Source: Balanoglossus misakiensis
Lineage: Eukaryota > Animalia > Hemichordata
Length of the DNA: 64,000 bases
Reading direction: 5' to 3'
Assembly (NCBI GenBank): GCA_040954595.2
Contig: CM082576.2
Coordinates: forward strand, 7,815,129-7,879,128
Part shown: in pieces, positions 9,001 through 57,200 of the stretch
Position numbering within the stretch: position 1 is the first letter of the stretch
Layout: every line of letters begins with the position of its first letter
Notes under the pieces: generated by a model
The model's input: the letters and a program-made list of their open reading frames with translations, nothing else
Told to the model about the DNA's origin: nothing
Database searches by the model: none
Position numbers and translations under genes: made by a program

Positions 9001-12000
9001 ACTTTTCGAAACATCAAAATTTCTTCATTTTTTCACAAAAATCATGGGTTATAGCTCATGAAAATCATCCAAAAATGACAATTTTTCGACTTTCCGAAAC
9101 ATCAAAATTTCTTCATTTTTTCACAAAACCATGGGTTATAGCTCATGAAAATCATCCAAAAATGACAATTTTTCGACTTTCCGAAACATCAAAATTTCTT
9201 CATTTTTTCACAAAAATCATGGGTTATAGCTCATGAAAATCATCCAAAAATGACAATTTTTCGACTTTCCGAAACATCAAAATTTCTTCATTTTTTCACA
9301 AAACCATGGGTTATAGCTCATGAAAATCATCCAAAAATGACAATTTTTCGACTTTCCGAAACATCAAAATTTCTTCATTTTTTCACAAAAATCATGGGTT
9401 ATAGCTCATGAAAATCATCCAAAAATGACAATTTTTCGACTTTCCGAAACATCAAAATTTCTTCATTTTTTCACAAAACCATGGGTTATAGCTCATGAAA
9501 ATCATCCAAAAATGACAATTTTTCGACTTTCCGAAACATCAAAATTTCTTCATTTTTTCACAAAAATCATGGGTTATAGCTCATGAAATCATCCAAAAAT
9601 GACAATTTTTCGACTTTCCGAAACATCAAAATTTCTTCATTTTTTCACAAAATTCATGGGTTATAGCTCATGAAAATCATCCAAAAATGACAATTTTTCG
9701 ACTTTCCGAAACATCAAAATTTCTTCATTTTTTCACAAAATTCATGGGTTATAGCTCATGAAAATCATCCAAAAATGACAATTTTTCGACTTTCCGAAAC
9801 ATCAACATTTCTTCATTTTTTCACAAAACCATGGGTTATAGCTCATGAAAATCATCCAAAAATGACAATTTTTCGACTTTCCGAAACATCAAAATTTCTT
9901 CATTTTTTCACAAAACCATGGGTTATAGCTCATGAAAATCATCCAAAAATGACAATTTTTCGACTTTCCGAAACATCAAAATTTCTTCATTTTTTCACAA
10001 AAATCATGGGTTATGGCTCATGAAAATCATCCAAAAATGACAATTTTTCGACTTTCCGAAACATCAAAATTTCTTCATTTTTTCACAAAACCATGGGTTA
10101 TAGCTCATGAAAATCATCCAAAAATGACAATATTTCGACTTTCCGAAACATCAAAATTTCTTCATTTTTTCACAAAAATCATGGGTTATAGCTCATGAAA
10201 ATCATCCAAAAATGACAATTTTTCGACTTTCCGAAACATCAAAATTTCTTCATTTTTTCACAAAACCAAGGGTTATAGCTCATGAAAATCATCCAAAAAT
10301 GACAATTTTTCGACTTTCCGAAACATCAAAATTTCTTCATTTTTTCACAAAACCATGGGTTATAGCTCATGAAAATCATCCAAAAATGACAATTTTTCGA
10401 CTTTCCGAAACATCAAAATTTCTTCATTTTTTCACAAAACCATGGGTTATAGCTCATGAAAATCCTCCAAAAATGACAATTTTTTCGACTTTCCGAAACA
10501 TCAAAATTTCTTCATTTTTTCACAAAACCATGGGTTATAGCTCATGAAAATCATCCAAAAATGACAATTTTTCGACTTTCCGAAACATCAAAATTTCTTC
10601 ATTTTTTCACAAAACCATGGGTTATAGCTCATGAAAATCATCCAAAAATGACAATTTTTCGACTTTCCGAAACATCAAAATTTCTTCATTTTTTCACAAA
10701 ACCATGGGTTATAGCTCATGAAAATCATCCAAAAATGACAATATTTCGACTTTCCGAAACATCAAAATTTCTTCATTTTTTCACAAAAATAATGGGTTAT
10801 AGCTCATGAAAATCATCCAAAAATGACAATTTTTCGAGTTTCCGAAACATCAAAATTTCTTCATTTTTTCACAAAAATCATGGGTTATAGCTCATGAAAA
10901 TCATCCAAAAAGGACAATTTTTCGACTTCCCGAAACATCAAAATTTCTTCATTTTTTCACAAAAATCATGGGTTATAGCTCATGAAAATCATCCAAAAAG
11001 GACAATTTTTCGACTTCCCGAAACATCAACATTTCTTCATTTTTTCACAAAAATCATGGGTTATAGCTCATGAAAATCATCCAAAAATGACAATTTTTCG
11101 ACTACCCGAAACATCAACATTTCTTCATTTTTTTACAAAAATCATGGGTTATAGCTCATGAAAATCATCCAAAAATGACAATTTTTCGACTTTCCGAAAC
11201 ATCAAAATTTCTTCATTTTTTCACAAAAATCATGGGTTATAGCTCATGAAAATCATCCAAAAATGACAATTTTTCGACTTTCCGAAACATCAAAATTTCT
11301 TCATTTTTTCACAAAAATCATGGGTTATAGCTCATGAAAATCATCCAAAAATGACAATTTTTCGACTTTCCGAAACATCAAAATTTCTTCATTTTTTCAT
11401 AAAAATCATGGGTTATAGCTCATGAAAATCATCCAAAAATGACAATTTTTCGACTTTCCGAAACATCAAAATTTCTTCATTTTTTCACAAAAATCATGGG
11501 TTATAGCTCATGAAAATCATCCAAAAATGACAATTTTTCGACTTTCCGAAACATCAAAATTTCTTCATTTTTTCACAAAAATCATGGGTTATAGCTCATG
11601 AAAATCATCCAAAAATGACAATTTTTCGACTTTCCGAAACATCAAAATTTCTTCATTTTTTCACAAAAATCATGGGTTATAGCTCATGAAAATCATCCAA
11701 AAATGACAATTTTTCGACTTCCCGAAACATCAAAATTTCTTCATTTTTTCACAAAAATCATGGGTTATAGCTCATGAAAATCATCCAAAAATGACAATTT
11801 TTCGACTTCCCGAACCATCAACATTTCTTCATTTTTTTACAAAAATCATGGGTTATAGCTCATGAAAATCATCCAAAAATGACAATTTTTCGACTTTCCG
11901 AAACATCAAAATTTCTTCATTTTTTCACAAAAATCATGGGTTATAGCTCATGAAAATCATCCAAAAATGACAATTTTTCGACTTTCCGAAACATCAAAAT

Positions 12001-12654
12001 TTCTTCATTTTTTCACAAAAATCATGGGTTATAGCTCATGAAAATCATCCAAAAATGACAATTTTTCGACTTCCCGAAACATCAAAATTTCTTCATTTTT
12101 TCATAAAAATCATGGGTTATAGCTCATGAAAATCATCCAAAAATGACAATTTTTCGACTTTCCGAAACATCAAAATTTCTTCATTTTTTCACAAAAATCA
12201 TGGGTTATAGCTCATGAAAATCATCCAAAAATGACAATTCTTCAACTTTCCGAAACATCAAAATTTCTTCATTTTTTCACAAAAATCATGGGTTATAGCT
12301 CATGAAAATCATCCAAAAATGACAATTTTTCGACTTCCCGAAACATCAAAATTTCTTCATTTTTTCACAAAATTCATGGGTTATAGCTCATGAAAATCAT
12401 CCAAAAATGACAATTTTTCTACTTTCCGAAACATCAAAATTTCTTCATTTTTTCACAAAACCATGGGTTATAGGTCATGAAAATCATCCAAAAATGACAA
12501 TTTTTCTACTTTCCGAAACATCAAAATTTCTTCATTTTTTCACAAAAATCATGGGTTATAGCTCATGAAAATCATCCAAAAATGACAATTTTTCGACTTT
12601 CCGAAACATCAAAATATCTTCATTTTTTCACAAAAATCATGGGTTATAGCTCAT
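3009..12654. repeat. Satellite B: 87/88-bp tandem array, about 110 units, about 9.6 kb
   Basis: The unit CATGGGTTATAGCTCATGAAAATCATCCAAAAATGACAATTTTTCGACTTTCCGAAACATCAAAATTTCTTCATTTTTTCACAAAA(C/AT/TT/AC) repeats with very few substitutions. The repeated MTIFRLSETSK ORFs are a by-product of the 87-bp units. Confidence 0.98.
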
Positions 12655-13363
12655 TTTAATGTCATATGCATGGATGATAGCTCATACACGCTCAAAAAAT
12701 GACAAATTCTTGACTTTGTAAATTTTGATGATTTTGGCATGCTCACGTCATATGCATGGATTATAGCTCATACTCGCTCAAAATATGACAAATTCTTGAC
12801 TTTGTAAATTTTGCTGATTTTGGAATTTTTATGTCATATGCATGGATTATAGCTCATACACGCTCAAAAAATGACAAATTCTTGACTTTGTAAATTTTGC
12901 TGATTTTGGCATTCTCATGTCATATGCATGGATTATAGCTCATACACGCTCAAAAAATGACAGATTCTTGACTTTGTAAATTTAGCTGATTTTGGCATTT
13001 TAATGTCATATGCATGGATTATAGCTCATTCACGCTTAAAAAATGACAAATTCTTGACTTTGTAAATTTTGATGATTTTGGCATTCTCATGTCATATGCA
13101 TGGATGATAGCTCATACACGCTCAAAAAATGACAAATTCTTGACTTTGTAAATTTTGATGATTTTGGCATTCTCACGTCATATGCATGGATTATAGCTCA
13201 TACACGCTCAAAAAATGACAAATTCGTGACTTTGTAAATTTTGATGATTTTGGCATTCTCACGTCATGTGCATGGATTATAGCTCATACACGCTCAAAAA
13301 ATAACAAATTCTTGATTTTGTAAATTTTGCTGATTTTGGAATTTTTATGTCATATGCATGGAT
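12652..13363. repeat. Satellite A, right block: 86-bp tandem repeat, about 8 units
   Basis: Same 86-bp unit and orientation as 2304-3009, somewhat more diverged. It resumes directly after satellite B. Confidence 0.96.
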
Positions 13364-19596: not shown

Positions 19597-19866
19597 ATGG
19601 ATGATAGTATATTTTCACTGTTCGGAGTTTCATTCCAAGAACAAGAAGAAGCGTGTGAACCAACAAACGAACACGATGTACAGCGAGACGCCGTGACGGC
19701 GGCGGCGTCGTCTTCGTCCTGGACGAGCAGCAGTGCACATGCGCTGTCTTTGTCGTCCGTTGCCGTTAGAGAGGTCGGACTCGGCGAGACGATCCGAACC
19801 AAAAGAACAGCTCAGGGATTACCTAAACTCGGAAACGTAGATTTTTTCGAAGCAAAAGAAACACAG
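19597..19866 (+). CDS. bZIP gene 1 (ATF3/BATF-like, about 201 aa), coding exon 1
   Basis: Acceptor TTCTTCAG|GAGC at 19584/5, ATG at 19597 and donor CAG|GTGAGT at 19866/7; 90 codons. It contains VREVGLGETIRTKRTAQGLPKL, a diverged form of the motif in genes 2 and 4. Confidence 0.8.
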
Positions 19867-20925
19867 GTGAGTATATTCAATCGTTTCCCTCACAGCGTCT
19901 ACGCAATGCCATTTCGTGGCTTTATTGGGTCGAACGCCATGCGCTAGACCAGCTGTGTTATGATCCCACAGCTCGGAGGGAGTTCATAATCACCATGTCC
20001 GGCGTTTTTGTGAGCGTTGAATAGAATGATTTGATGTTATCGATGGTTTGGCTAAATCACGTTCAGTGGTCTTGGCACGGTTCAAGAAAAGCTCTTACTA
20101 GTAACACATATCGACTCATTAATTATATACATTTCATCCGTTAGGTCTCATGCTATGGCCAGTCCGGCTTCGCCACCACGAAGCGTGACCGTGACTCGAG
20201 TAGAGAAAACCAACCAAACAACAAACAAACAAACAAAATAATCAACTAAACAATAACCTACATAACTAATAATAACAGTTTAATAACTTTTTGGCAAATC
20301 TGAAACTCTACAGATGGTGCAATATGAGGTTCCTGTTTTCAAAGCACCGAAAGCGAGAATTTAGTTTCCCTAAATTCAACCGACCTCTCGCTTCCCAATA
20401 ACACTACAAAACACTGCACAGCGGTGAGAGTCCAATCGGTCTTTTCAACTTTGTTGCTTTGTATGTTGCTTTTTGCACCTGCGCGTTTGCCGAAGAATTC
20501 TCACACTACAAACTCGGGTTTACTTCTGGTTTTGACAAGTTCCAAAAAATCACATCAAGCAGTGACAATTGTACATGTTCCCCTTTCGTACACACTCTAT
20601 TTTGGCCAAAACTCCAGAGTGGTGACGACTTGAGGGGCCCTTCAAATGATGATTAAAACAGGCGCACGACACAAACAAAATTGAGTGCGTTTGACCTCAA
20701 ACCCATTCCCAATTTAACAGCACTGTGAAAATACAGACTGGTAAGTTTTATGCTTCCAGTACGTATATCTGTGCAACTGTAGAGAGGGAGGGTGTCGGTG
20801 CATCGCCGCTGTATTAATCTGCAGTAACAGCCCAATTTTGACACCACCAAGACAACTTATGTTGCGGCTATTTGTTTGACGTCAGTGAAAATACCTGACG
20901 ACAAACCGATATGATATTTTTGCAG

Positions 20926-21069
20926 TCACCCAGCGACGATGACGACGACGACAACGACGGAGACGATGACGAAACCGAGGAGAAGAAGCGGATACGGAGG
21001 GAACGCAACAGAATGGCGGCGACCAGGAGCAGAGGAAAGAAAAAAGAACGAGTCGATAAACTTGTCAAG
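20926..21069 (+). CDS. bZIP gene 1, exon 2 (acidic tract plus basic region)
   Basis: TTTTTGCAG|TCA ... AAG|GTAACT; 48 codons. Reads SPSDDDDDDNDGDDDETEEKKRIRRERNRMAATRSRGKKKERVDKLVK, with the bZIP N-x7-R signature. Confidence 0.92.
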
Positions 21070-21954
21070 GTAACTGTCGCTTGTCAGCTTTTCAGAGTCA
21101 GAAAATAGATCTCTGAGATAGAAAGTCTTTACATGCAAAATTCTACAAGAGCACAAAAGATTGCATCGGAATTATTTACTGAAGGGTGCAATGCACCCAA
21201 AATTTGAAATGTTCATGTGTGGTTTTTATAATATTAAATTTATACCAAAATCATGCAGTTGTGTAACCAATCGATGGGATACAGTGAAATAAAGGTAACG
21301 GCGCTCTTTCCTAGATATCAAGAAACGTCAAAAATTCGGCGGGCCATTTCGTGCGGGTCTAATACTTTCGGGACAGGTGACGTGTCCTGGGCAGGAAAGT
21401 GCTTCGCTCAAAGACACAGCATCGCACCCACACGTTGTTCCGAACTCCCAACAACTTACCATGAAATGTGCCTTTCCGATGATATTAATATCCAAAAGGT
21501 CGGTTGAATCAGGCGATCACACCTGTCAGTGGGCCACGCATGTTCGCTCAGAAAGTCCCGAGTTCAGTGCACCCTACCAAGATCTGCTGTCCATCGATCT
21601 GATACAATGGAGGAGCATGCTGCCATTACTCAAGAAGCATTTCCTCGGAAAATGCTTTTGGGGAGTTATGTCGGAAAAGAGAACAAAGTTGCCGAAATCG
21701 ACGTGAATAATTATAGATACGAGATCATGTCAAACGACAGCATGTCAATAAAATTCAATTCCGCAATTTGAATACAACCAGCCCCCGCGAGGTTTGGGCC
21801 CCAGGCGGAAGAAAAGTATTTTTTGTAAGCGTGAAAACAACCCTCTCAATTGTCAGATACGATACGCACCAGTCGGACAAATATCATATCGACACACGAA
21901 AAGTGTTCGTTTGTAACATTTGTTAAGTGTATAATTTTATTTTTCTTCTGAAAG

Positions 21955-22146
21955 GAAATCGACAAACTGGAAAGCGACAACTACCAACTCAGGACGGAAC
22001 TCCGGAAACTTGATCAAGAGAAAAAGAGACTGTCCCTGACCCTGCAAATCCACGAGATGAAATGCCCGCGCAGGGTCACCACCGTAGCAGACAGAAAACA
22101 CAGCGACGACCGGGGAAGCTGTGGAGGAACAGTGATTTTGCCCTAG
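21955..22146 (+). CDS. bZIP gene 1, exon 3 (leucine zipper)
   Basis: Polypyrimidine tract then AAG|GAA. Reads EIDKLESDNYQLRTELRKLDQEKKRLSLTLQIHEMKC...LP*, with heptad leucines in register with exon 2 and the Fos/ATF3 HxxxC end motif. AATAAA at 22414. Confidence 0.92.
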   Translation, partial: EIDKLESDNYQLRTELRKLDQEKKRLSLTLQIHEMKCPRRVTTVADRKHSDDRGSCGGTVILP

Positions 22147-25049: not shown

Positions 25050-26437
25050 GGGTAGGGGAACTTTAAATTGCTGTAACTCCAGCAAAACTAAAGCCAGAAC
25101 AGTCATTTACCACTCAAATTGTGTGTTTTTTAGAACTCTACCAAAATAATATATTTTGGTGGTAATTCGTTTTGAATTGAGGTTAATAGAGGTCAAAAGG
25201 TCATGAAATTCGGGTCATTCTGAACATTTGTACTATGACTATTTCTTGAACGATTTTTTTGAACTTAAGTCTTCAAATGTCATTTACAAGATAAAATACT
25301 CTCCCAGAATCTATTTCAAACCAATAGAAAACCTTATTATTCATTTATGACCAGAAAAACACAAATAAAGAGAAACGACAGAAAGACATCCAATTTTCCA
25401 CTCAGATTTAAGGGTAGGGGAAACTTAAGTACTTGTAACTCCGGCAAAAATAAACCCAGAACAGTCATCTACCACTCAAATTGTGTGTTTTTTAGAACTC
25501 TACCAATATAATATATTTTGGTGGTAATTCGTTTTGAATTAAGGCCAATAGAGGTCAAAAGGTCATGAAATTTGGGTCATTCTGAACATTTGTACTATGA
25601 CTATTTCTTGAACGATTTTTTTGAACTTAAGTCTTTAAATGTCATTTAGAAGATAAAATACTCTCCCAGAATCTATTTCAAACCAATAGAAAACCTTATT
25701 ATTCATTTATGACCAGAAAAACACAAATAAAGAGAAACGACAGAAAGACATCCAATTTTCCACTCAGATTTAAGGGTAGGGGAAACTTAAGTTCTTGTAA
25801 CTCCGGCAAAAATAAACCCAGAACAGTCATCTACCACTCAAATTGTGTGTTTTTTAGAACTCTACCAATATAATATATTTTGGTGGTAATTCGTTTTGAA
25901 TTAAGGCCAATAGAGGTCAAAAGGTCATGAAATTTGGGTCATTCTGAACATTTGTACTATGACTATTTCTTGAACGATTTTTTTTGAACTTAAGTCTTTA
26001 AATGTCATTTAGAAGATAAAATACTCTCCCAGAATCTATTTCAAACCAATAAAAAACCCTATTATTCAATTACGATCAGAAAAACACAAATACAGAGATA
26101 CGGAAGAATGGCACAAGACTTCAGACCCTGTTATTGGGGTAGTAGTTGTAACTCCGGCAAAAATAAAGCCAGAAAAGTCATCTACCTCTCAAATTGTGTG
26201 TTTTTTAGCACTCTAGCGATTGTATATGTATTTGTTGCAATTTTGTTTTGAATTTAGGTCAAAGAGGTCAAAAGATCACAAGATTTGGGTAATTTCGAAA
26301 AATTATGGTACGAACATTTCCCGCATTAATTTTTTAAACCCAAGTCTTCAAATGTCATTTATGAGATAAAATACTCTACACGATTTTTTTTCAGACCAAT
26401 TGAAGACCTTATTATTCAATTACAATCAGAAAAAAAA
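25050..26437 (+). repeat. Subterminal tandem repeats of about 362 bp in the left arm (4 copies)
   Basis: The GTAACTCC(A/G)GCAAAA anchor recurs near 25073, 25435, 25797 and 26148. Confidence 0.9.
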
Positions 26438-26809
26438 TTAGTAGAGAAACGGGATAATAACAAACAATTTCCCACGGATTTGGGGGTAGGTTTGGCCATC
26501 TAACAGGTAAGTATACACCCAATTGATCATGCACATATGGTGTTTAGGAGAACGGATGTGCAAATTTGTGAACCTTTGCATGCTGCTCATGTGCACTGTA
26601 CTTGTATGATGATTCCTAACAATACTACGAGAAGGGGCCATTATAGCATTGTAGCTCTGATTGTGTATTATTGTTGGATACCATCCTACAGTGTACAGGC
26701 ACAGCAGATGACAAGCCAAGCATAGGTTCAAAAATCTGCTTATTTTTTTTCCTCAACACAATATGAGCATGATCTATTTATATTCAGGTCCAGTATAATA
26801 AATAAAAAA

Positions 26810-27318
26810 ATGGCCTCGTCACTCTACAAGATCACGCCTCCTGGATAACTTTGCTGAATACAGCTAACATACAAAAATACAAACCAATTCAGGACCTCGC
26901 CATTGGTTTGGGCGAAGGTGAAATTCCTCAGGTGCAGTACCATCGGAAATTCGGAAATGCCGAAGTCTCTTTACGATGAAAAAGGCTCTTGAATCTATCC
27001 TTTCTAAAGAGCAGTCGTCATCAACTGAGAGAACCAATACACTGGAACGTAAAAAAGAGGTCGAGCATACAAGGGTCTCGGTGTGATCACATTTGCCTAT
27101 TTTGCTCCACCACCAAGTACATGAAGGGAAGTAGGACAAAAGCTCATTTAGTTCGTTGTCAGCAATTGCGTGCGGACAACACATTAAGGGAGGCAGCAAC
27201 AAAAAAAAACGACAGTAAAATTCGTGCACTTCTCAGTCGTGAGTTGGTTGCTGCTGAGGGTCACTATCATAGAAAGTGTTATAGGGACTATACAAGGCCT
27301 GATATTCAAGCAGCGTAA
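26810..27318 (+). pseudogene. Frameshifted N-terminal transposase fragment (left copy)
   Basis: Contains CDHICLFC...LVRCQQLRADNTLREAATKKNDSKIRALLSRELVAAEGHYHRKCYRDYTRPDIQA. It has a deletion of about 79 bp after the ATG relative to the right copy. Confidence 0.75.
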
Positions 27319-28085
27319 GCAGGATTAGAGCAGATGTGGTGATGATACTTTCATGTGATTGTTTTTCTGCTGCAAGAAGTTCTTTTCAGCATTGTACTTC
27401 AGGTCAACAGTACCTATATCTAGTGAGACGGATATACAAGCACCCTACCATTTACATCATTGTCCCTTTGAATTCCGTATTTAGCGTATGCTGCAAGTTT
27501 TGTTGGTGGAATTGTTAACCTGTTTACCACCAAGTTGGAGCATTTTGGTAACTAACTTGTTTGATAGATCAGTCAGGGGAACTACCTCAGGGTTTGTGAA
27601 CAAATCATTTCTGATAAAAGAAAATAACTCTTCTTGAGCAATTTGCAGGACATCCTCATAACTAGTATCTTGATCATGTTGACTTTCATCAACCTCCATA
27701 TGACTTGAACCTGCTTGAGCAAAATAGGCAAATGTGATCACACCGAGACCCTTGTATGCTCGACCTCTTTTTTACGTTCCAGTGTATTGGTTCCCTCAGT
27801 TGATGACGACTGCTCTTTAGAAAGGATAGATTCAAGAGCCTTTTTCATCGTAAAGAGACTTCGGCATTTCCGATGGTACTGCACCTGACGAATTTCACCT
27901 TCGCCCAAACCAATGGCGAGGTCCTGAATTGGTTTGTATTTTTGTATGTTAGCTGTATTCAGCAAAGTTATCCAGGAGGCATGATCTTGTAGAGTGACGA
28001 GGCTTGCTTTATGGTCGGATTCATGACAGTCGAGAAAACAATCCCGTCGAGCCCTCTTGTGTGGAATAGAAGATGGGTTTGCCAT
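27314..28085 (-). pseudogene. Frameshifted N-terminal transposase fragment (right copy)
   Basis: Reads MANPSSIPHK...VQYHRKCRSLFTMKK, then after an internal deletion QAGSSHMEVDE...LFSFIRNDLFTNPEVVPLTDL, and further fragments such as NGRVLVYP. Confidence 0.72.
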
Positions 28086-28456
28086 TTTTTATTTATTATA
28101 CTGGACCTGAATATAAATAGATCATGCTCATATTGTGTCGAGGGGAAAAAATAAGCAGATTTTTGAACCTTTGCTTGGCTTGTCATCTGCTGTGCCTGTA
28201 CACTGTAGGATGGTATCCAACAATAATACACAATCAGAGCTACAATGCCTTAATGGCCCCTTCTCGTAGTATTGTTAGGAATCATCATACAAGTACAGTG
28301 CACATGAGCAGCATGCAAAGGTTCACAAATTTGCACATCCGTTCTCCTAAACACCATATGTGCATGATCAATTGGGTGTATACTTACCTGTTAGATGGCC
28401 AAACCTACCCCCAAATCCGTGGGAAATTGTTTGTTATTATCCCGTTTCTCTACTAA

Positions 28457-29480
28457 TTTTTTTTCTGATTGTAATTGAATAATAAGGTCTTCAATTGGTC
28501 TGAAAAAAAATCGTGTAGAGTATTTTATCTCATAAATGACATTTGAAGACTTGGGTTTAAAAAATTAATGCGGGAAATGTTCGTACCATAATTTTTCGAA
28601 ATTACCCAAATCTTGTGATCTTTTGACCTCTTTGACCTAAATTCAAAACAAAATTGCAACAAATACATATACAATCGCTAGAGTGCTAAAAAACACACAA
28701 TTTGAGAGGTAGATGACTTTTCTGGCTTTATTTTTGCCGGAGTTACAACTACTACCCCAATAACAGGGTCTGAAGTCTTGTGCCATTCTTCCGTATCTCT
28801 GTATTTGTGTTTTTCTGATCGTAATTGAATAATAGGGTTTTTTATTGGTTTGAAATAGATTCTGGGAGAGTATTTTATCTTCTAAATGACATTTAAAGAC
28901 TTAAGTTCAAAAAAAATCGTTCAAGAAATAGTCATAGTACAAATGTTCAGAATGACCCAAATTTCATGACCTTTTGACCTCTATTGACCTCAATTCAAAA
29001 CGAATTACCACCAAAATATATTATATTGGTAGAGTTCTAAAAAACACACAATTTGAGTGGTAGATGACTGTTCTGGGTTTATTTTTGCCGGAGTTACAAG
29101 AACTTAAGTTTCCCTTACCCTTAAATCTGAGTGGAAAATTGGATGTCTTTCTGTCGTTTCTCTTTATTTGTGTTTTTCTGGTCATAAATGAATAATAAGG
29201 TTTTCTATTGATTTGAAATAGATTCTGGGAGAGTATTTTATCTTGTAAATGACATTTGAAGACTTAAGTTCAAAAAAATCGTTCAAGAAATAGTCATACT
29301 ACAAATTTTCAGAATGACCCAAATTTCATGACCTTTTGACCTCTATTGACCTCAATTCAAAACGAATTACCACCAAAATATATTATATTGGTAGAGTTCT
29401 AAAAACACACAATTTGAGTGGTAAATGACTGTTCTGGCTTTAGTTTTGCTGGAGTTACAGCAATTTAAAGTTCCCCTACC
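28457..29480 (-). repeat. Subterminal tandem repeats of about 362 bp in the right arm (3 copies)
   Basis: The reverse-complement anchor GGAGTTAC occurs near 28739, 29090 and 29451. Confidence 0.88.
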
Positions 29481-32400
29481 CCCAAAATTTGGGTCGGAAA
29501 TTTTTAGGTTCTTACATTAGTTTTTGAGGGAAAAAATGCAGAAAGCTACTCGATAGGTAGGGCTATCACCCCAATTTATAATCTAGAGATGTAGGCCTTT
29601 CCAAAAAACCATGTGAGGCTTTGTCCATCTTTCTGATACCAAATTCCTGTCTGGCCCATGGACTATGTCCCAAAAACCACAGTCTCTGTCCATCACGGAG
29701 AGGACACAAACATAAATGTCGAGAATGTATCCATTTAAAAGAACTGAAACCGAGAAATCACGGCATTGACACCCTGGAACGGAATTTTCGTGATGGGGCA
29801 CTTCCTCATTCGTCTCTTTAACGCCAATAGAAATGGCAGATACCGAAACAGTCACGTGTTTTCACAACAGGTGTAACAGAGGAAGCTGTAGGTTATATGC
29901 CGGTGTCGGTGAAAAAATAAATGCGTTCGCAAACGCTTGTTAGCCCTATTTCACTTTATCTAATGTTTTCAACCAGTGTACTACTTGAATTTGTGAATAC
30001 ACACCCACTGCGTGATCTGGGACGGTATTTCGTGGTGAAAGCATCATCATAGTTGAGTCTAAGTTTGCGCACTGGGGCAGCGGAACGTGATCCACCTCAC
30101 TCTCGGAGTTCAAGGACGATTCCCCTGAATCCGATCGCGCACATCCCTAGCTTACAAAGTTTCACACGATCGACTGTCAATATTTTGAACAAAGCGCAGG
30201 AAAGCTGTGACAGATTGTAGTGACATCTTCAATTGGTCTTGTCACTCCGTTTGTTGTTTGTCTGTATGTCTGTTGTAACCCACTTTTCATTTGTGATCTG
30301 CGATATGTTGATTTATTGCAGTGACGAGGAGCAACATGAAAATCCATCGAGTACCGTACTGGGATTAGGCCTACTATAGAGCAATAGATCAATCTTCCTA
30401 ACTTCGTTCTATTCAAACATTGTCTCCCATTCCTTGTTGACTTTATTCGCCGAGTGGCGTGCCACGTGGCATCTGGCGTCATTCTTCACTACTTGAATCA
30501 AAATTAAACATTATTCCTTAAGTTCACGCCCAAAGTTAATCATCATGGCCAGGTTGACAGTCTCTTTATCCTACATCATTATGATTGTGTGAATCTATAC
30601 TAAGCTTGATGTATGAATCGATCGATCGATCGATAAATCAATCAATCAAATGAGGTTAAGAATCATACACGCCAACCTTTTTGTCTAAAGTGGGTCACAT
30701 GCGCGTGATTTTTTGATGATTCACTGTTTGTGGCAAAACTCCTAGATGCGTGGTTGGGGTTCCCCCCGTCAACAACGCAAGGACGGTTCTGGCACGTGTT
30801 CTTTACGTACGCGTCGGGTTCCCCCGGAACCCGATGGATCGCGCAGGATTCCCCCCGGAACCAAGCCTAATTCTCGTTCGCTTTGTTAGCATAATATGAA
30901 GTTCAGTGTCCCGAGAAGGCATCCCAAAAATGGGATATCCATGAACATGGTACATTATTAAAGTAGAGCAAAAATCACAGTTTCCAAACCATCGTAAGCT
31001 TACCGAAACGAAAGCTCGAGTCGAACAGACCTGCTGCGCTCTTTCGCTTTGTTCAGAGCATGCGCGGGATGGGAATGGTGTATATGAACACTTCGGACTC
31101 AGACTATGTTATTAATTGAAAGCGGTGTCAAACCATGCACTGACAAGGGGATGTGAAAGAGTCTAGATTACCCCCGGCACATTGACAGGCCGATAACGGT
31201 TCCTGGTAGCACTCACGAAATCCTTGAGAAATGCTTTCAAATTCCTGACTCTCAGAAAATCACCTGGTTATATCAACCGCAGTAATAGGTTGGTATTGAT
31301 TGTATACATGACGGCTATAGCTGTGAAACACATACGACACTGTACTCACTCATTCAAAGCAAAGTATTAATGAGGAAAAACAAAAACTTTTTATTTAAAA
31401 AAATACAAATATTCTTCAATGAAAGTAACAACATTAAGTACGAGTACAGATATTCAGCGTAAAAACCTACATTATATGCTATCTCAACTTGTTAATAAAC
31501 TAAACATATCACAATTCACTTATCATGCTTATAAAATGGCTGCTATCTTAACGCACGTCGTAGTTAAATCCCCGGATGCAAAGCCTAAACCAATCAGCTT
31601 CTTTGCAGTACTTTGCCTGGCTGCGTGAAAACGAAAGCAGCCGCCACAATGACCTTTTCCCAAGACATTCACTTCAGGGAATGTCCTTGGACGAGGACGG
31701 GAAACCCGAAAGTCTTTTCCCACTTCCACATTTGCTTTGGTGTGAAGTGCGCTCCCCTGTCGTGTGTGACCACTTCTCCAAATGCCAAGAAGGTACATTT
31801 TCTCATGCAAGGTGAAAGCGTCTTACCACGTAGTTCACACCATTTACAACGGGGAATGTCAGTTTTCGGATTGCTTGTAAATTCATGATATCATTCCACT
31901 TCAATGCTGGTAATGCTAACATGCTTGCCTGGAAATTGCTACAGTAGGAATTACTACGAAATCAAACTAAAGGAAGACAGACGACTTGGCAAATTTAACA
32001 CAATTCGACCGTTTTTTTTTCTAACAACGTAAGGCTAATGACCGTCACTTGGAATGTTTATGAGTACGCTAACTATCATGGGAAAGGCTTGTATTAAGTA
32101 ACTTGTTTAATATGGCTTTTAGAAATTCCAATGAAGAGTTTTCCTTCTTTTGACGATGAGGTGTTTTTCCTCGGTTTTGTTTTACTTTTTGTTATGAACG
32201 ATACAAAAGAATACGCATTTAAAAAGTACAAATTTGAAAATCTGCTTTTCCTGAACACGATGTACGTATCACGCATATCATAAAGCCACAAAAGGGCACT
32301 GTGAATGCTCTAAAGACTATGTCAAAACCCTGAAGTTGCCTGAGTAAAAATGCCACACAGAAGAAAATATCCCATGCTTTGTTGTATCATCCTAGACCAT

Positions 32401-34722: not shown

Positions 34723-37266
34723 CGAAATGTGAATACCTCTTAGCGCTAATAGTTGTCTTTTATATTATAGCTTTAAACTGAAACTGTCTATGAATATGTG
34801 GGATGATACATATATAGTAATCGCCGACTTATTCAAAAGAGGCATTCCCCCGCGTAGACCAAATATAGAAAACTCGTCTCTAGTACCGCGCAGGCGCAGT
34901 CGACGACCGGAACTTACGTTCGACATTGATTGGGCAGAAGCATTGGCGATTACCTGGAACGCGGGTTATTCCTAAACAATATCGACAGGTTGTTGCCGTT
35001 CCGAGTAAAGTGCACGACGCGAGGTGGGCTTAAGAATTGGCGTGGAATCGTTTTGCTTGTGGGCACTGGAGCATATCACCTGACGAAAGCGTACCCACCC
35101 CACCCACCCGACGATTCTCCTCGCCGGAGGATACCACGCATATCACGCTCCCTGATTTATTTTTAAACTCAAATTGAGCCCCAATATCGACCACTTTGCA
35201 CATGCGCAATTGACTTTACCTAAGTGGTCGCGGACAAGTGTGTCGTCGAATCGCGACGTATCATAGTGCAATATGCCAGCTGAGCGCCTGAATTGGCAGT
35301 CGGGCGAAAACGAAAGAAATTTATAAAAACCTCTTCGATTGCAATCCGGGCCCTTAAAAGTGAATATATTTTAATGCAATAGTTTATCGTTATATCTTGT
35401 GCTTCATATAAGTTTCATTGTGCAAGGATAAACATGTTTTCAAAGCCCGTACCCATTATAACAGTTCACCATATTTCACCAGATATCTATGAATTGACCC
35501 ATGAATTGCACAGACGCCGAATTCATCACGAGTATATTTTAAAGTCACTGTACTGATCAGAAAAGTGGCGTCACTTCTCCGAATACTCTATCGCCGCAAG
35601 ATTAGACTATCAACTGAGATTATCCACTATCTGTGGTCGTTCACGATTGTGACTCCCCCATTCATATCATGCACAGTGCCATGCATTTCATACACTTTAC
35701 ATACTAGTATATTTCATATATTTCAATGACTGATAAGGGGGGAGGCGAGCAATCGGAAGCCTTTTGTTTAATAGAAATACATTAACTCTACAATCATGAC
35801 AATATCACGATGCAACGTGTGCCGAGAGTGAAGTGAAACTAAAGCGATTTTGACACAGCTGGTACTTGTTATTGCTACCTAAGTATTCGCGGTGTTGACA
35901 TTCGATGTCGATAAATAACAGTTGCTCACGAAATCGCCAAGAAATACCACGCTTTTGACAGCGGACGGTTACTGAGCTGACGGGGACACAGAGCACTACA
36001 GATGCAGCTTGGGAAGTATCAAGAAGCCAAAAATAGCCACTTGAAAGAAAATTTCAAGTGACAGAAAGTTTCCACATCAGAGTGGGCGCAATTTTAGAAG
36101 AATTTGAACCGCTGTACCTTAATGTAGTCCTCCCACGCACAGAAAACGGGCTTCCGGGGTGCCCTGGCGCGAAATTCGTTCTTCTTTTTTGCCAAGTGCC
36201 TGTCGTTCGTGCTATTGGTCGCGCAGCGCTCTGTTTTGTGATCCCGACCGCGGAGTGAGTCTAGTTAATATGTTCATGTGTATGACATCATCTGAACCAC
36301 AGTCGACGGCGAAATTCTGCGAAGGTCTTTGAATTCGCAGAACTTGCAAAAAGAACAGCCCTGCATGTAAACATCTCGTTCAAAATGGCGCATTAAAATT
36401 TGTTGAAGTTGCCTAGGTGTCACATATTACTAGATTACAGAGAAACGCTTGGGCCTGCGCATTGGTATTAAAGTGTGTTGTTTGGGAGTGGATGCAAACG
36501 ACACAAAAAAGTTGCCGCTCGTTTGCATTGTCCAATACCTACACAGAGATCACACAGTTTGTGTTTGTTCGCAGCTAGGCCTAGGGTGTGCCTCCATTTT
36601 AAGTGATGACCTGGTTTCTTTTTCGTGTTTTTTTTTAATATTTGCTAAAACTGCTGTCCGTATATACATGTATAGCTAATATTATTAAACCGCAACTTAA
36701 ATAAATAACACATGCTAAACAATTCCGTGTAGTTGAACGTACTTTCACCAATGCAATAATAAGCGGAGACCGCGCCTGGCGGCAAACTGCAAGCCGGTGA
36801 CAACAGACCTAGGATCGAATCGTACAGGGCGCTGACGGCAGCTAGCTTTCCGTAATATGCATATGGGACGGTCGATCTTAACCAAGCATCATGGGCAGCC
36901 ATTTCTTCGCTTCTTCGGTCGTTTTGCAAGTGGCTAAAAGTGTCCGATCGCATGCATGAGATTGATCCGTCGACGGATAGATCATTGATTTAAACTAATC
37001 GCGAGCTGTTTGTGTGTAGGGGTTGTTGAAGTGCGGGCATTTTTACCACCCGTTTGACATTTTTTGCCGGAAACTAGATTCGTGCATTAGTACAACAGCC
37101 ATGCGTCACCAGGGTTGTACTAAGCCCCTCGGAACCTCTGCTAAAAGTGCAGGCGCCCAGTTTACTGACACCAGCTGCAGTCGAGGCGCCGAAGCACTCG
37201 GCGACTCGGAAAATAACGGTCGGAACTACCTCGGAAAGAAAAAAAAGGCGTTACATATCGACTGAC

Positions 37267-37542
37267 CTTCTCCTGTTTCGCCGGCGTATGCTCAACCGTC
37301 AGTTCCGAAAGTCCCCGGGCGAGTCTCTTCGTCTGGATGGTGTACTTGATTTCTTCTTTTAAGACCGCTGTCAGCGAAGTCGAGTCTGCTTTGTCCCCCG
37401 TCTCGTCAAAGACCAACGTGTCACCTTCTTGGTAAATGTGCTCGGTCTGGCCGCTGTCGGCGTCGCACGTTCGAAGCAGAGCCATGGCCGCGCTGGGTTT
37501 CTCTTCTCCGCCGTCCTCGTACTCCGATACTCCCCTCGTCAT
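37267..37542 (-). CDS. bZIP gene 2, coding exon 1
   Basis: Acceptor GTTCAG|GAGC at 37552/1, ATG at 37542 and donor AAG|GTCAGT; 92 codons. LKEEIKYTIQTKR resembles the ATF3 pre-bZIP motif VKEELRFAIQNK. Confidence 0.88.
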
Positions 37543-37839
37543 GAGTGGCTCCTGAACGGGGAAAAAACACGAAAAATCTATGAGCGTACGTCGATTATTT
37601 TAGAATTAATATACACAAAACGCGTTACAAGAAATTCTACAACACTTGACAAATAAAAAACTTATGGTGGCTTGGATTTAGGCAGGGGTATATGTTTTTG
37701 AAAAGGAGTTGTAATTTCTTACGGTCAAAACAACGCTGCCGGTTTCTACAAAACGCACCATTGTGAACGAAATTAGCTATAAAATGTACAATTGAAAACG
37801 AAGTTATGACAGAATACTACGATAACGTTGTATTTTTAC

Positions 37840-50000: not shown

Positions 50001-52353
50001 TTCTGAGCCGTATTGACGTGGATATCGGAGCGTATGAGTAAGATCTGATTCACAAATAATGGCCGTGTCGAGCAGAGGTCGAGAAATGACTATATCATCG
50101 CCCGCAACAAGGTCAGTTATGTTTGAATATTGACGGATTGGGAGCTATTTTGGTTTGGCGCACAATTCTCAAATATACGTGCACGTTCTTTCGTTGTGTT
50201 GTTCAGAAATGGATTTTGACTTCCACTTCGTTGTCCGCGCGAGGACATAAGTGACGGCAATGGTGTTTGAATCTTTAAGAAACGAAACGGTCGAAAATTC
50301 CCGCTCCGGCTATTCTGTTCGAATGCGCATGCGTTATTTTTCGCTTCTTGAACCCCCTTCTCCCCACCCCGGCCAAGCGTCACAGCTGTCGGCGGAAATA
50401 TGCCGTGGCAACGCTCAAATTTTGGACTGAAAGCCCCGTGAACGTCATAACGGTGGTGGTTTGAGTGCTTTTTGAAGCTGACGACAAAATGTGGCCGTTT
50501 AGATTTCGCACATGTAGCTTCCATCCTGCACTCGCACTCATCATGCGCACCGCTGCCGCCACACACAATGCAGTGTCGCCCATTATGAACGATCCAGTTA
50601 CAACCCTAACGACAGCTCCAGAAAACATGAGTTAACCGCTGCACTGCGGGACAAAATACATAACAATGGACAGCACCAATATTGATCACCTTGCACAGGA
50701 AAACAAACTGAAAAGAAACCATTGTGGCGAAGCATGCGTCACCCGCTCTCCCAATCTAAAGCTTAAATCAAGGACACCTCAAACTTCAATTTCCTGCCTA
50801 AAATATTTGCAACCTTCTCAACGTACTTCTTGTACTGGAAAATTCACCAATGTAAATAAAAAAGAAATACAAATCCACACTTTTTTTAAAAAGTACGAAG
50901 GAAGCTTTCCCTTGGATTTCAGTGGAAAATATTACAAATGGGCTAGTCCCAGTAAAATGCATAAAAATCGATTTCACATGTAAAATAAAACTTCAATTGG
51001 CCTACTGACAATAACTTTCTCTATGACAAGTACATGATTGTGGCAATTTCTTGCTTTCATCCGTATGAGTTTAAATTATACGGTCATCTATATAAAATGT
51101 TTGCATAAATACACCAAATAATGCAGATTCAACCAATCACAGATTTCAAAATCAGTGACCACGCCAAAATGTACCCAGCCAAGTACACTTTAAACACAAA
51201 TGGACATACATAAATTAAAGCTTGGTGATTATTAGTCACGGTAAAATGTCACCCTGAACGATTGATATTCTTAGAGACAGGAAACAAAGTCGTCATCCTT
51301 AACATCATTTTTGCATATTTTTGAATTGTCTTGTTTGAAAACAAAGTGATCTCCCTGTGTAGGCAGAAGACTTTAATATTACACGTCACCGAAGGGGAAT
51401 GACCTCGCTGCGATGTTATTTGTCTACATTTCCAAACAGGATGAAAGCAGTGACAGCACATTTTGATGACCTCTGACCTGAAATAACCGTAGTTGTGTTT
51501 AAAGACGACGACTTTGGCCTTGTAAGTGTTGGTAGTTTTGACTTTGGACATTTCCGGTAATTTAATGTACCGTCAGTATTTGAAACAATCTGGGAACAAT
51601 ACTCCACTTTTCGTCACCCCTGAGTGACCTTACATCCTGGTAATTTAGTTGGGATGGCATCATACATCTTTTGTCATGAACAAGCGTCATGTTTTTGGTC
51701 TAGGATTACTCAGGGTACACAAACCCAACGGTATGGATGCCTGTTGCAGCAAACTCATACCGACAGAAATGTCAGGATGCAAAGGTCACAAAGGGGTCAA
51801 GAAAGCGTCGGGCCTATCGCAAATTTAAAGCATTAAAGATACACACACCACGTGGAATTATGGCCAACCCGAAACCTAAAATTCGAAAGTAATCCCACAT
51901 GGTGCCGTATCATCTGCTAGACAACAAATGTCATTAGCTATGATCAAAAAGAATGGCGAAAGTAATCACGCCAACAGGCACAGACCGAGTCGGAAATGGG
52001 CGATTCAGGCACTGTATGTGCTTTGGTGACTCCACCGATTGGTCGTGCTCCGATTTTCACCACACAGTAAGTGGCAAAGTGGTGGTGGTCGTCTGTCGTT
52101 CTTCTTGCCCATCATGCAACTCTCCGGGACGGCGTTGAACTTCTAGTAACGGGCAATCATGAAGCTGGAGCCGATGATTCATTCAGTTGCGGGTTGATAC
52201 CATTTATGGCAATGGGCGAGGGGAGAAGTTCTCTTTTCTGTTTTTGCAAAGTCCGCCCACGGAGCGGAGAACAGATTTTGGGAGATGTGCGCACATGAGA
52301 TTTCAGTAGAAGGTATTCACAAATAATTGCTTAGATTAGATGACATCGCATTT

Positions 52354-52587
52354 TCAATGCACCCGCGGTGTCTTCATAGAAAGACACAGTGCCTCTGTTT
52401 GCTGTGTCCCATCTCCATGACAACAATGGTGCGTGCTCTCGCCAGCTGGTTCTGGGGTGTGCCTCTCATGCACAGAGCGACTCATTTGAAGAGTTTGGAC
52501 AGCGTGAACGAAATATTCTCTCCTGTCCTCCAGGAGGCGGAGTCGTGTCTTCAGCGCCATGTTCTTATCCTGGAGATCTTCCATAAT
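52354..52587 (-). CDS. bZIP gene 3, candidate alternative terminal exon 3b (second leucine zipper)
   Basis: Acceptor TTGCCTCTTGTGCACAG|ATT in phase 0. IMEDLQDKNMALKTRLRLLEDRREYF aligns without gaps to exon 3a ESERLQEANAVLQEKIRALEHHKNFL. Open for 77 codons. Confidence 0.68.
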   Translation of the reverse strand: MMEDLQDKNMALKTRLRLLEDRREYFVHAVQTLQMSRSVHERHTPEPAGESTHHCCHGDGTQQTEALCLSMKTPRVH

Positions 52588-52766
52588 CTGTGCACAAGAG
52601 GCAATATTGAAAGCTAAATCAGTCTCGGAACAAACGGCTGTTGGGTGCATTATGCTCCTGAAAGTGCATAACACTTGTCTTCAATCACAAAGTCGGCAGT
52701 TTGATGAGCAGTTTGATGGGCGCATCTATTTAGCAGAAAGGTGTGTTATGTATTAGTGTCTTTCAC

Positions 52767-52907
52767 TCAGAACATCAGCTTCACCGAGCCAGGAAACGTC
52801 GGCATTTTCACTTGATCCCACAGGCGAGTGAGAAAGTTCTTGTGGTGCTCCAGCGCTCGTATCTTCTCTTGAAGGACGGCGTTGGCTTCTTGTAGGCGCT
52901 CAGATTC
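52767..52907 (-). CDS. bZIP gene 3, exon 3a (leucine zipper)
   Basis: ACTTTCTGCAG|GAA. Reads ESERLQEANAVLQEKIRALEHHKNFLTRLWDQVKMPTFPGSVKLMF*, with heptad leucines in register with exon 2 and no HxxxC. Confidence 0.88.
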   Translation of the reverse strand, partial: ESERLQEANAVLQEKIRALEHHKNFLTRLWDQVKMPTFPGSVKLMF

Positions 52908-53464
52908 CTGCAGAAAGTCAAGGTAAACCCAAAGGGGGACAACACGTGTAAAGATGCTATAGCTAGCAGCTGACTGTTCATTAGCCCAGGAACGTTTCGA
53001 TTTGGGAATACATTATACATTATTTTGTTGATTTTGTAAGTTAAAGTATTTCACTCTTGACAGAACACAGAAAGAACGTCCATGGAGATCTTTACTATAG
53101 TCCACAGAAAAAGACGCTTCAAAACAAGCCATCAAATCCTTCCATTATAACACTTACGCCAGTTTTCCTCCATGAAAGTCACACCAGATTCAAACCAAGA
53201 AACATATTTCAATTCAAGGAGAGAAAAAAACGACGATCAGCTGTGCATAGGGTAGACAAACGGTAAAATTAAACGGAACACTGTCCATCGGACAATTATG
53301 GTCTTTTCGCCTGGACTGAAATTCAAGGTGGCGCGCGCACTATGATGCAACTAAGTGTTGCATCAGTTGTTTCTGCGTACTTTGATACACCTGCACGTAG
53401 TACGCAAGACACCACAGATAAATGTTTTTTTTTCTGTGCAAACTGAATGTGGAACCGATCCTAC

Positions 53465-53566
53465 CTGGTTGAGGGAAGTTGTCGACTCTCGCTTCCTATT
53501 TCTGTATCGCTCGGCGGCCAACTTGTTCTGGTCACGCCGTCTCTGGCGTCTCTCCTCCTCGGCAGT
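53465..53566 (-). CDS. bZIP gene 3, exon 2 (basic region)
   Basis: ATAG|ACT ... CAG|GTAGG; 102 bp. Reads TAEEERRQRRRDQNKLAAERYRNRKRESTTSLNQ. Confidence 0.9.
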
Positions 53567-54271: not shown

Positions 54272-57200
54272 TTTTTCTGTGCTGTCTCCCAGTTCCACAA
54301 CGTTTACCCTTCTGTTGGAGGCGCTTCACGAACATAACAAGCGTGCGGCTTTCTTAGTCAACGCGTCTGGGCTAAGTGATTGCCTCAGAATATGTCGCAG
54401 CTTAAAATCGTGTCTCTCGCAATCACGAGCAGGTATTGCGACAGCACATATAGGTCGGGGATGCCGGTCAACAGGCATTGGTCGCGCGTGCGGCTCGTAG
54501 AATCCCACGTCATCAGCCGCCTGACTGTACATGCAAATACACGTAGCTAGAGAAGGTTCCAGAGCGATGATGAAAACCTCAAAAAGTGTTGCATCAGCAT
54601 ATCTTGCTTGGTCGCTACGTATCGGACTCCCTAGCTACGTTCGATTTAACGCTTCGACGACTCTCCATGTTTCGCACAACGGGATTTCTGCACAGCCTCA
54701 TTCATATTCATAAAATGACGTCGACATCACCGGTCGAACGGTCTGACCTTCGTAGCCCTGAAAGTTCAGTCTAGGCGCACCTGAGTATCTGGCGATTTCA
54801 ATTCGCGCAGTCTCTAATTTACAACGACGTCTGCTTTTACGGTTAACATTCCGCCGTACCCAAGCTTGGATTCGCGACCGCGTTAATCGGTTTACCGCCA
54901 CCAAATCACGAAGACGCTGTCGCATAACTGTCTAAATTTAGAGGTATGTTGACATACAAAGTAGAAACCGTCCTATTTCAATGACACCGCCTGTCAAGGT
55001 TGGCGAGAACAATGTTTATTGACACACAGACAGACACAATGGAGAACCGTCCCTGAAATGGCCTCATCGACGTGGGGCCCACAGGCAAACAGTCGCTCAG
55101 AAAATTTAACATACAAAACCGATACATAAAATCGCTGCAAAATCACATGCTGGATAAAAACCTAGGAAACAGTCGCTACAAGTGAAATATAAACAAAGAA
55201 ATAAGTGTGAATTACACAGCACTATATGAAATAAAATACTCATTATCAAACATTTCAATAAAAACAAAATGGAAGTGTTGTTCTTGAATTATTTTTTTCT
55301 GTGTTTACATGTTACTTCAATCGAAAACGTGGCCAAGGTCAGACACATTTCTCTTGACATTTCTGGCAATGTCATGGTTTTTTTAGCTCTTAAATTTCTA
55401 AATTTAAACATTTTGATTTCAATGATAACGTATTCAAATTTCCTATGTACCGGGCGGTATACTGTTTTGAATATCACAGGTATTGCGTAAGTCGTGATCA
55501 TGTTGCAGTGTCCGTCGCAAGTTTTCTTTGTTCGGGTTATTGTTTGTTTATTTTTATTTATTTATTTCGCAAATGAAAGGCAGTTTTAATAAGTCAATAT
55601 TGAATTTCAGTCAGTCTCCGGCCAACACCATGGTCATGCATAAGCTGTATGTTCTATATATATATTACAACTGTCATTATGCGGACACAATCTGTTGACC
55701 TGTTTGGGGTGAATGTCGGTCGCATAAATGACCAGCACCTTGTTAGGACAAAATTACTGCGCAGCTGGTCAAGGACAAGACATACACGCCAATATTAAAT
55801 TCTAGTATGAACCCCAATACATAAATTTACAAATGTACCAGTGTTTTTTTTTTGCCGTTGTTACCGTTGTTGTTTTGATGTAACTATGTTCCTCGTTAAG
55901 ATTTCGCGTTAACGACTTTGTGAATTACGTGGCACCACTATCGGAGTTGCTGATTGTTCTATATTGAAGGGGCGTTATTTAGTTACCTCATTTATGGTCA
56001 TTTAAAAAAAATGCTGGCAAATTGTGAACCACGGGCCGCCACAGTAAACGGCAGATTTCGTTTCAAGATTCTGCTCGATGCATTCCATGATGTGTGTGCT
56101 ACTGAAAAATACGAAAATCAGCATTCCCTTTTTATTTCATTTTTTTAAGATTTTTAAAAATAAGACTTACTCCTTTTTAAATCCCATAATTTTGTTTTTA
56201 TTTCAAAATTTATAAACTTCCTTTTTAGAAAAAGAAGCCCATAATGCAAGCCCCTGCATAAATATAAAAACTCATAATTCAGCCCACAGTTAGTTCTAAC
56301 CTTATTTTTAGCCGAAGAACATTTGTTTAAATATTGTACGGACCTAAAAGAACACGAATGTCTAATTTCTGTTGTTCAAAGAAAAACTAAGGTATTCTAC
56401 GTGTCATGGCATAAGCTTTCCGCTGTGGTATAAAAACAAATCGTTGAAAGAGGAGTGACATTTATTTGATCAAAATTTTCAGCTACGTCGGATGATATTT
56501 TAATGCCGTGTTTTTTTTCCGCATCAAAATATGTTTTTTACAGATTGTCAACGGCCGTGGTTTGGCCGATCATCATCCGTTTATGCGTTTCGAGTTCACG
56601 GTCGGGTGACATGTGTTACGGGAAGAGACGCTGATCGCGGCCTTATTGCATGCGTGGTTCAAGTTGTTGGCGCACATATGAGCTAATAGTACAGTGACAT
56701 GGTAGAGATAAAAGTGACTATTTAACTTAATCCATTTTAATGGTTGTGATTTCACGGCCATATCAAAGGAGGGCCACTATTTCACACAGGACAGCCCAAG
56801 GCAAAACATATCGGCTTTCGTAATTTGTCGCAGTAATTATAGGATTAAGATGCGCTCTGGTGACGCCTGTGAAAAATATGTGTTTGTGTTGGGCGGGGGG
56901 GGGGGGGGGTTCCAGTGTTGAAATCTGCTTGCACAGTTATACAAGATTTTGTTGGAGTATACTTGACACAGAAATGCTGCCCTTGGGTAAGGACGTGACC
57001 GCCGTGGACGTCAAGGTCGTGACGTTGCACCTGGGATAAATGAAACAGCCACCGGGGATTTCCAATTAGTGGACCTGTGCGGGATGTTAATAGTTCTTAG
57101 TTCAAGGTCTGAAATTGTGATTTGTAAAAAAAGCCGATATTTTTCTTAGAAAGAAGAATTGGGCTGATTCCCTCTTTGCTCGTTGACAGAATGTGTGTTG

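Follow-up and report, generated by a model that had tools for sequence, protein, structure and literature searches.

An ancient acorn-worm bZIP gene with two alternative leucine-zipper exons behind a single basic-region exon

The window analysed here, a 64-kb stretch of DNA from the acorn worm Balanoglossus misakiensis, contains four small, clustered bZIP genes of Fos/ATF3-like type whose introns lie at matching positions: gene 3, on which we focus, and its neighbours gene 1 (19597-22146, plus strand), gene 2 (37599-32665, minus strand) and gene 4 (63378-62412, minus strand). A six-frame scan of the window recovered four basic-region exons, together with one unrelated pattern match, and five zipper exons; gene 3 was the only one of the four genes with two zipper exons (Table 1). 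These two exons, 3a and 3b, are each in phase 0 with the single basic-region exon of gene 3. The first-pass annotation of this DNA had placed the basic exon, the two phase-0 CAG acceptors and both zipper frames correctly. It had also described the two zipper peptides as aligning without gaps and as keeping the L-L-L register and the Asn at the second a position (a2), all of which is right for 3a and 3b, and the DNA divergence that it noted amounts to 37 of 99 bases identical. A heptad Leu repeat continues in register from the N-x7-R of the gene 3 basic region, the arrangement that identifies a bZIP protein. The basic exon alone matched Pfam bZIP_1 with an E value of 3.2e-5 and 24.4 bits, a fragment score below the 27.6 cut-off, and PF00170 is precomputed on orthologue isoforms of both the a and the b type.

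Table 1. Features of gene 3. Positions are those of the 64-kb window.
Feature	Position	Strand	Remarks
First coding exon, 64 aa	54080..54271	-	ATG 54271; donor CAG/GTAAGA; common to both isoforms
Single basic-region exon, 102 nt, 34 aa	53465..53566	-	AG acceptor; donor CAG/GTAGGA; phase 0 at both ends
Zipper exon a (3a), proximal acceptor	52767..52907	-	after TTTCTGCAG; 46 aa + TGA; 144-aa isoform
Zipper exon b (3b), distal acceptor	52354..52587	-	after GTGCACAG; 77 aa + TGA; 175-aa isoform
Core a positions of zipper a			S, N, I, K, W/L
Hallmarks of zipper b			hydrophobic a1, basic e2, invariant EDRRE, aromatic d4
C-terminal 12 residues of isoform a	52770..52805	-	P, F, G, K, L, F invariant in 4/4 species; conserved to the stop
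Short conserved b-tail motif	52372..52395	-	EALCLS here and in Ptychodera; EPLCLA in Glandiceps; LC only in Saccoglossus
Spacer from a stop to b acceptor, 179 nt	52588..52766	-	probable 3' UTR of isoform a and intron of isoform b
Variant poly(A) hexamers in spacer	AATACA 52754, AATAGA 52730	-	only such variants in the spacer
Two ATTAAA hexamers	51566, 51377 (51372..51566)	-	candidate shared poly(A) signals
Branch-point-like CTGAT	52618..52622	-	putative; about 30 nt upstream of the b acceptor

Orthologues with both zippers were present in all three other acorn worms found, and in each of them the a and b forms are annotated as isoforms of one gene (RefSeq XP models). A query with the basic exon retrieved the Ptychodera flava pair XP_070578101.1 (X1, zipper b) and XP_070578102.1 (X2, zipper a). 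A profile search yielded both forms from Saccoglossus kowalevskii LOC100376084 (X1 = b, XP_002741332.1; X2 = a, XP_006824837.1) and the b form from Glandiceps talaboti LOC144449553 (X1, XP_077996232.1), the a form of which (X2, XP_077996240.1) came from a cluster look-up. Glandiceps has in addition a zipper-less form, X3 (XP_077996248.1, row P0009), consisting of the basic region plus 7 residues and using the same donor. The members of each isoform pair have 132 (Ptychodera), 101 (Glandiceps) or 138 (Saccoglossus) N-terminal residues in common and diverge 21 residues past the invariant Asn, which is the exon boundary of gene 3; in Saccoglossus the distance is 22, because zippers a and b both start with Glu. 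The predicted product of the first coding exon of gene 3 aligned with the orthologue N-termini at 33% (Ptychodera) and 44% (Glandiceps) identity. The orthologue isoforms are products of automatic annotation and bear inconsistent names (c-Fos-like, ATF-3-like, fosB-like); alternative RefSeq isoforms are normally based on aligned transcripts. For B. misakiensis itself, splicing is read from these orthologue gene models. The proposal of the first-pass annotation, a constant basic region that can carry either of two zippers, is thus supported by isoform pairs in every other acorn worm found.

Both zippers have been retained over a long period. The Enteropneusta are described as comprising Harrimaniidae, Ptychoderidae and Spengelidae (PMC11175523), and the Saccoglossus and Ptychodera lineages are reported to have split more than 370 My ago (PMC4729200). 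Across the six species pairs, identity per 33 residues was 20-29 for the basic exon, 25-30 for zipper a and 14-26 for zipper b, and 23 of 33 residues were invariant over the four species in zipper a compared to 11 of 33 in zipper b. By this measure, which was taken on the protein sequences of four species, zipper b evolves faster than both zipper a and the basic exon. An exon 3b that was absent, frameshifted or neutral in relatives had been named beforehand as the mark of a dead duplicate; we found it in frame and conserved in all three other acorn worms, and because both forms have been kept across the Saccoglossus-Ptychodera split, 3b is not a dead exon. Outside enteropneusts, no b-type zipper occurred among the 147 of 155 collected proteins that had a usable basic-region anchor, where the best other score was 47 compared to 103-130 for b; the search covered the best 150 of 652 matches and the profile search scored 7,995 candidates, so that b-type zippers may still occur in echinoderms or pterobranchs. 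Exon 3b as sole query gave no match among 17 candidates, the orthologues being retrieved with the basic exon, and a search of the ESM Atlas with the b exon returned generic bZIP and coiled-coil matches only, all below 0.9. As far as seen, the alternative-zipper trait is enteropneust-wide. The P. flava orthologue of gene 4 (XP_070578103/104) has accessions adjoining those of gene 3 and lies on a contig of equal length, which fits a conserved bZIP cluster.

We compared the two zippers residue by residue. In gene 3, a and b are identical at 8 of 33 residues (7-10 of 33 across species), and codon positions 1, 2 and 3 are identical at 13, 16 and 8 of 33 codons respectively, the third being least alike. 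The BLOSUM score of a against b was reached by 1 of 20,000 shuffles, a test that any zipper would pass because shuffling destroys the heptad. Over the four species, the residues of a and b do not overlap at a1 (S in a, M/I in b), e2 (Q/H and K/R), a3 (I and L), g4 (H and R), a4 (K and R), d4 (L and F/W), g5 (L and A), a5 (L/W and I/V) and d5 (Val and L/M/I/N), whereas d1, d2, the a2 Asn and the e3 Glu are common to all eight zippers and a4 is basic in both types. Zipper b stands apart from its wider family at two of these positions: d4 is F/W/W/W in the four species, compared to Leu in 115 of 125 other distinct zippers, and a1 is hydrophobic, compared to Ser in 92 of the 125. The residues at g1-g4 of zipper a are E, A, K and H in all four species, and those of zipper b vary (g1 I/M/I/E, g2 K/T/A/A, g3 R/K/K/K, g4 R/R/R/R). 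The change from E, A, K, H to I, K, R, R that had been read from the B. misakiensis sequence is therefore correct for this species, but only its last member, H to R at g4, is fixed; the other three are not.

Matching of Asn at a positions is described as a strong specificity element of bZIP pairing and g-e' charge as an established determinant, with d usually L, H, V, M or I (PMC4335062). Since the a2 Asn is kept in both a and b, the main partner filter is common to the two. Net charge at e and g was +2 to +3 for zipper b and 0 to +1 for zipper a, and in a simple charge count the attractive and repulsive g-e' pairs numbered 2 and 0 for a with a, 2 and 0 for a with b, and 2 and 2 for b with b. 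Against the acidic neighbour gene 1 the counts were 1 and 2 for a and 2 and 2 for b, against gene 4 they were 1 and 2 for both, and against snake FOSL1 they were 0 and 2 for a and 2 and 2 for b; these three were the partners scored besides a and b themselves. Because the main filter is common and the charge differences are small, we would expect a shift in preference and strength rather than a clean swap of partners.

Each zipper is followed by a tail of its own (Table 1). The LCL motif of the b tail loosely resembles the CtBP-binding motif PXDLS and would be no more than a lead towards CtBP. A CxxC follows zipper b in the three other acorn worms, and in B. misakiensis the corresponding stretch reads SRSVH (52483-52468, minus strand), both Cys being lost. 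A post-zipper Cys is kept by b in three of four species, and it is present in 122 of 141 family matches.

Several features bear on how the two acceptors might be used. The 17 positions before the acceptor contain 13 pyrimidines at a and 11 at b. It had been remarked that no AATAAA lies between the exons; this is true, but it says little, because there is none anywhere on the minus strand from 55020 down to 48625. The two exons may also be separate last exons, with isoform a ending at the AATACA or the AATAGA of the spacer.

Splice forms of ATF3 are known that delete the zipper (ATF3deltaZip), and the first-pass annotation had implied that replacement of a zipper is without precedent. CREM is such a precedent, although some of its basic region is encoded by exon I as well. 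In CREM the basic region and zipper come from exons H and I, and alternative splicing uses either Ia or Ib as exon I (PMC8329441), so that, as in gene 3, a single basic exon is joined to either of two zipper exons. Unlike gene 3, CREM belongs to the CREB family, and its two zippers are strongly homologous, compared to 7-10 of 33 identities in gene 3; the two CREM/ICER domains are called "in principle, functionally equivalent" (PMC3941242). Gene 3 differs further in that the cut falls after the whole basic region and in that isoform-specific interfaces and tails are conserved. Because the bZIP families differ, the two layouts are most likely independent in origin. The accessible text of one review (PMC8957905) makes no mention of zipper-deleting forms of ATF3. 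The literature searched, which lacked most subscription papers, contained no account of gene 3 or of zipper replacement in the Fos/ATF3/ATF4 branch, and the Saccoglossus locus id LOC100376084 appeared in none of its papers. Gene 3 is a real, ancient alternative-zipper gene that is apparently unstudied.

Gene 3 resembles Fos, ATF3, JDP2 and BATF in its structure matches, in its intron positions and in the post-zipper Cys retained by most b forms, and differs from them in having two zippers and, within the basic region, Gln-Asn and Tyr-Arg. The best matches among solved structures were FosB and c-Fos, with E values of 6.5e-8 for FosB and 7.4e-5 for ATF4; with a profile this margin narrowed to 4.6e-9 and 6.1e-8. 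No CREB chain occurred in the 17, 19 and 14 solved-structure matches (E up to 1), which argues against membership of CREB/CREM/ATF1. The phase-0 introns that precede the EEE-basic exon and the zipper lie where they do in the three neighbour genes, and zipper a has a positions S, N, I, K, L, compared to S, N, I, R, L in JDP2. Identity in the basic part was 16-20 of 33 with JDP2/FOSL1 compared to 13-17 of 33 with two ATF4-like rows. Unlike ATF4 and ATF5, gene 3 has a structure and a neighbourhood of the Fos/ATF3 type. On the other side, in all four species the invariant Asn is preceded by Gln and Tyr replaces the usual Cys, as in ATF4, and the Fos/ATF3 markers, the basic-region Cys and the d5 His, are absent from gene 3 and its orthologues. 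The basic signature Q-N-K-x-A-A-x-x-Y-R recurs in human ATF4 (1ci6) and in an ATF4-like match, as does the end of zipper a, [FY]L..LL..VR. In maximum-likelihood trees gene 3 joined four Tyr-bearing rows, with SH-aLRT values of 98 (with a) and 83 (with b), these rows being long-branched and only 4 of 142; each tree held 142 rows and 68 columns, excluded P0009, P0113, P0132 and rows that were too short, and contained no Jun, C/EBP or CREB outgroups. We tentatively read gene 3 as Fos/ATF3-derived with ATF4-like DNA-contact residues. With Tyr for Cys and Gln before Asn, its basic region may read a different half-site.

The simplest origin for the pair of zippers, and a plausible one judging from their residues, would be duplication of the last exon. 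Both zippers lack the Glu/Gln at g4 that is present in 122 of 125 others and the d5 His present in 112 of 125, and in both the residue at c4 is mostly aromatic, where Tyr occurs in 7 of 125 others; these unusual states at g4, c4 and d5, common to a and b, favour exon duplication. However, fourteen of the 125 other zippers scored against b as high as a does, and a and b were joined in 0 of 200 bootstrap trees, although an AU test did not reject their joining (p 0.249; 31 rows from 153, 35 columns). In the trees b was joined by two protostome-type zippers with long branches, rows P0028 and P0029 (the latter from Mytilus), a placement that we read as attraction or convergence at a1.

We hold it to be very probable that both isoforms are in use. 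Our preferred reading, held with moderate confidence, is that a single donor is joined to one of two acceptors, proximal for a and distal for b, a choice which would change dimer strength and partner preference while leaving the DNA-contacting helix constant; that partner preference differs between a and b has, on the residues compared above, a little better than an even chance, and a clean partner swap is less likely. In the simplest model the two acceptors would act as alternative 3' splice sites within one terminal region with a common downstream poly(A) site. Isoform b would be reached by skipping a, and in the a-mRNA zipper b would lie silent within the 3' UTR. Acceptor a would be the default, because it is proximal and has the better pyrimidine tract. 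The partner sets of a and b would overlap with different weights, because the a2 Asn and the basic a4 are common to both. In b, the hydrophobic a1, basic e2 and g4, and Trp/Phe at d4 may favour acidic partners of the Fos/ATF3 type and alter packing in the C-terminal half, and since a separate conserved tail comes with each zipper, the choice may also affect stability or the recruitment of effectors. A stronger form, in which acceptor choice is a true partner switch between a neutral JDP2/ATF3-like zipper and a basic, aromatic-core zipper with its own partners and possibly a corepressor-binding tail, is conceivable but doubtful.

The two isoforms might instead be made while their zippers pair alike, as is said of CREM DBD I/II, the selected difference lying in the tails (a conserved hydrophobic C-terminus in a, CxxC and LCL in b) or in mRNA control. 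The a2 Asn and e3 Glu found in every zipper, the basic a4 of both types, the g-e' counts that differ little between a and b, the functional equivalence reported for CREM/ICER and the invariant residues in both tails all agree with this. However, the fixed differences at the interface (a1, a3, d4, a5, e2 and g4), kept in four of four species, argue against equal pairing, and the b tail is poorly conserved, with the CxxC lost here and the motif cut to LC in Saccoglossus; we regard this account as rather unlikely. Unlikelier still is that zipper b is deliberately weak, an attenuator or dominant-negative that, in the manner of zipper-less variants, mainly lowers the amount of active dimer rather than recruiting new partners. 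The zipper-less X3 annotated in Glandiceps from the same donor is in keeping with such a role, but b has gained a hydrophobic a1 and retains d1-d3, the Asn at a2 and an EDRRE that does not vary, a pattern suggestive of selection on a particular interface.

That only one zipper is used, the other isoform arising from gene prediction or from noisy splicing of a duplicated exon, would agree with splicing evidence that consists of annotation and with b being the faster-evolving exon. Both exons are nevertheless intact and conserved in all four species over more than 370 My, with isoforms annotated in three of three, and because an unused exon would not stay conserved, we consider this account very improbable. 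The poorest prospects are those of two arrangements that the first-pass annotation had put forward as alternatives: a splice from 3a to 3b giving a tandem zipper, or a zipper-only peptide starting within the spacer. The elements invoked, an acceptor at 52657, an ATG at 52650 and a donor CAA/GTGAAA at 52811, exist as described, and the donor is in phase 0 and the ATG in frame with b. The donor is weak, however, matching 6 of 9 consensus positions compared to 7-8 in four real donors, and the a tail past it is conserved to the stop in all four species. Neither product was among the seven orthologue isoforms retrieved, by searches that favoured proteins with a basic region. Use of the 52657 acceptor, a weaker candidate, in the main frame gives a 12-aa tail and a stop, and hence a zipper-less protein. 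This tail is unrelated in sequence to that of Glandiceps X3, a counterpart of which was absent from the three-frame translations of the intron and the spacer.

New dimer specificity in bZIP factors is usually credited to whole-gene duplication, and gene 3 raises the question whether splicing can rewire a bZIP network. Factors of this class read DNA only as dimers, and the partner alters the bound site, as described for ATF3- and ATF4-containing dimers (PMC5349851). Two deeply diverged zippers behind an identical basic region, in the three main acorn-worm families, constitute a natural controlled experiment on what the zipper contributes. If acceptor choice were a true partner switch, one gene would have formed two separate nodes of the bZIP network for more than 370 million years, splicing would rewire partner specificity in a way not reported for the near-equivalent zippers of CREM, and the zipper-less Glandiceps form would be an additional off state. 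One hemichordate study is described as having quantified the longest isoform per gene only, so that a switch between a and b would go unseen there (PMC11618098).

The rest of the window offered further observations. Among the neighbours, genes 1 and 4 encode acidic zippers with net e/g charges of -6 and -4 respectively. Two candidates for the first coding exon of gene 2 are apparent (37162-37599 and 34691-34560, both minus strand); the upstream candidate contains a 'KEE..YTIQ.KR...G..EL.V' stretch, as in invertebrate ATF3-like matches, and the nearer one has an ATG. Three identical TGATGCAAC 9-mers, which we take to resemble a C/EBP-ATF stress element, lie at gene 3, one upstream (54588-54596) and an inverted pair in intron 2 (53357-53365 and 53343-53351). 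Such 9-mers were not enriched in the window (6 found, 4.3 expected; 29 of 100 shuffles reached 6), and because the count is not above chance they were not used as evidence. The CRE core TGACGT occurred 67 times in the window, compared to 32.6 expected, a count reached by 0 of 100 shuffles; about ten of these copies stem from arrays of an 86-bp repeat. At 2304-13363 there is an 88-bp satellite of about 110 copies with 97% matches; on each side of it a related 86-bp unit is repeated about 8 times. Finally, at 25050-29481 two short tandem arrays (362 bp x 3.9 and 351 bp x 2.9) border a region with ORF fragments on both strands (26864-28456), which may be a decayed mobile element.
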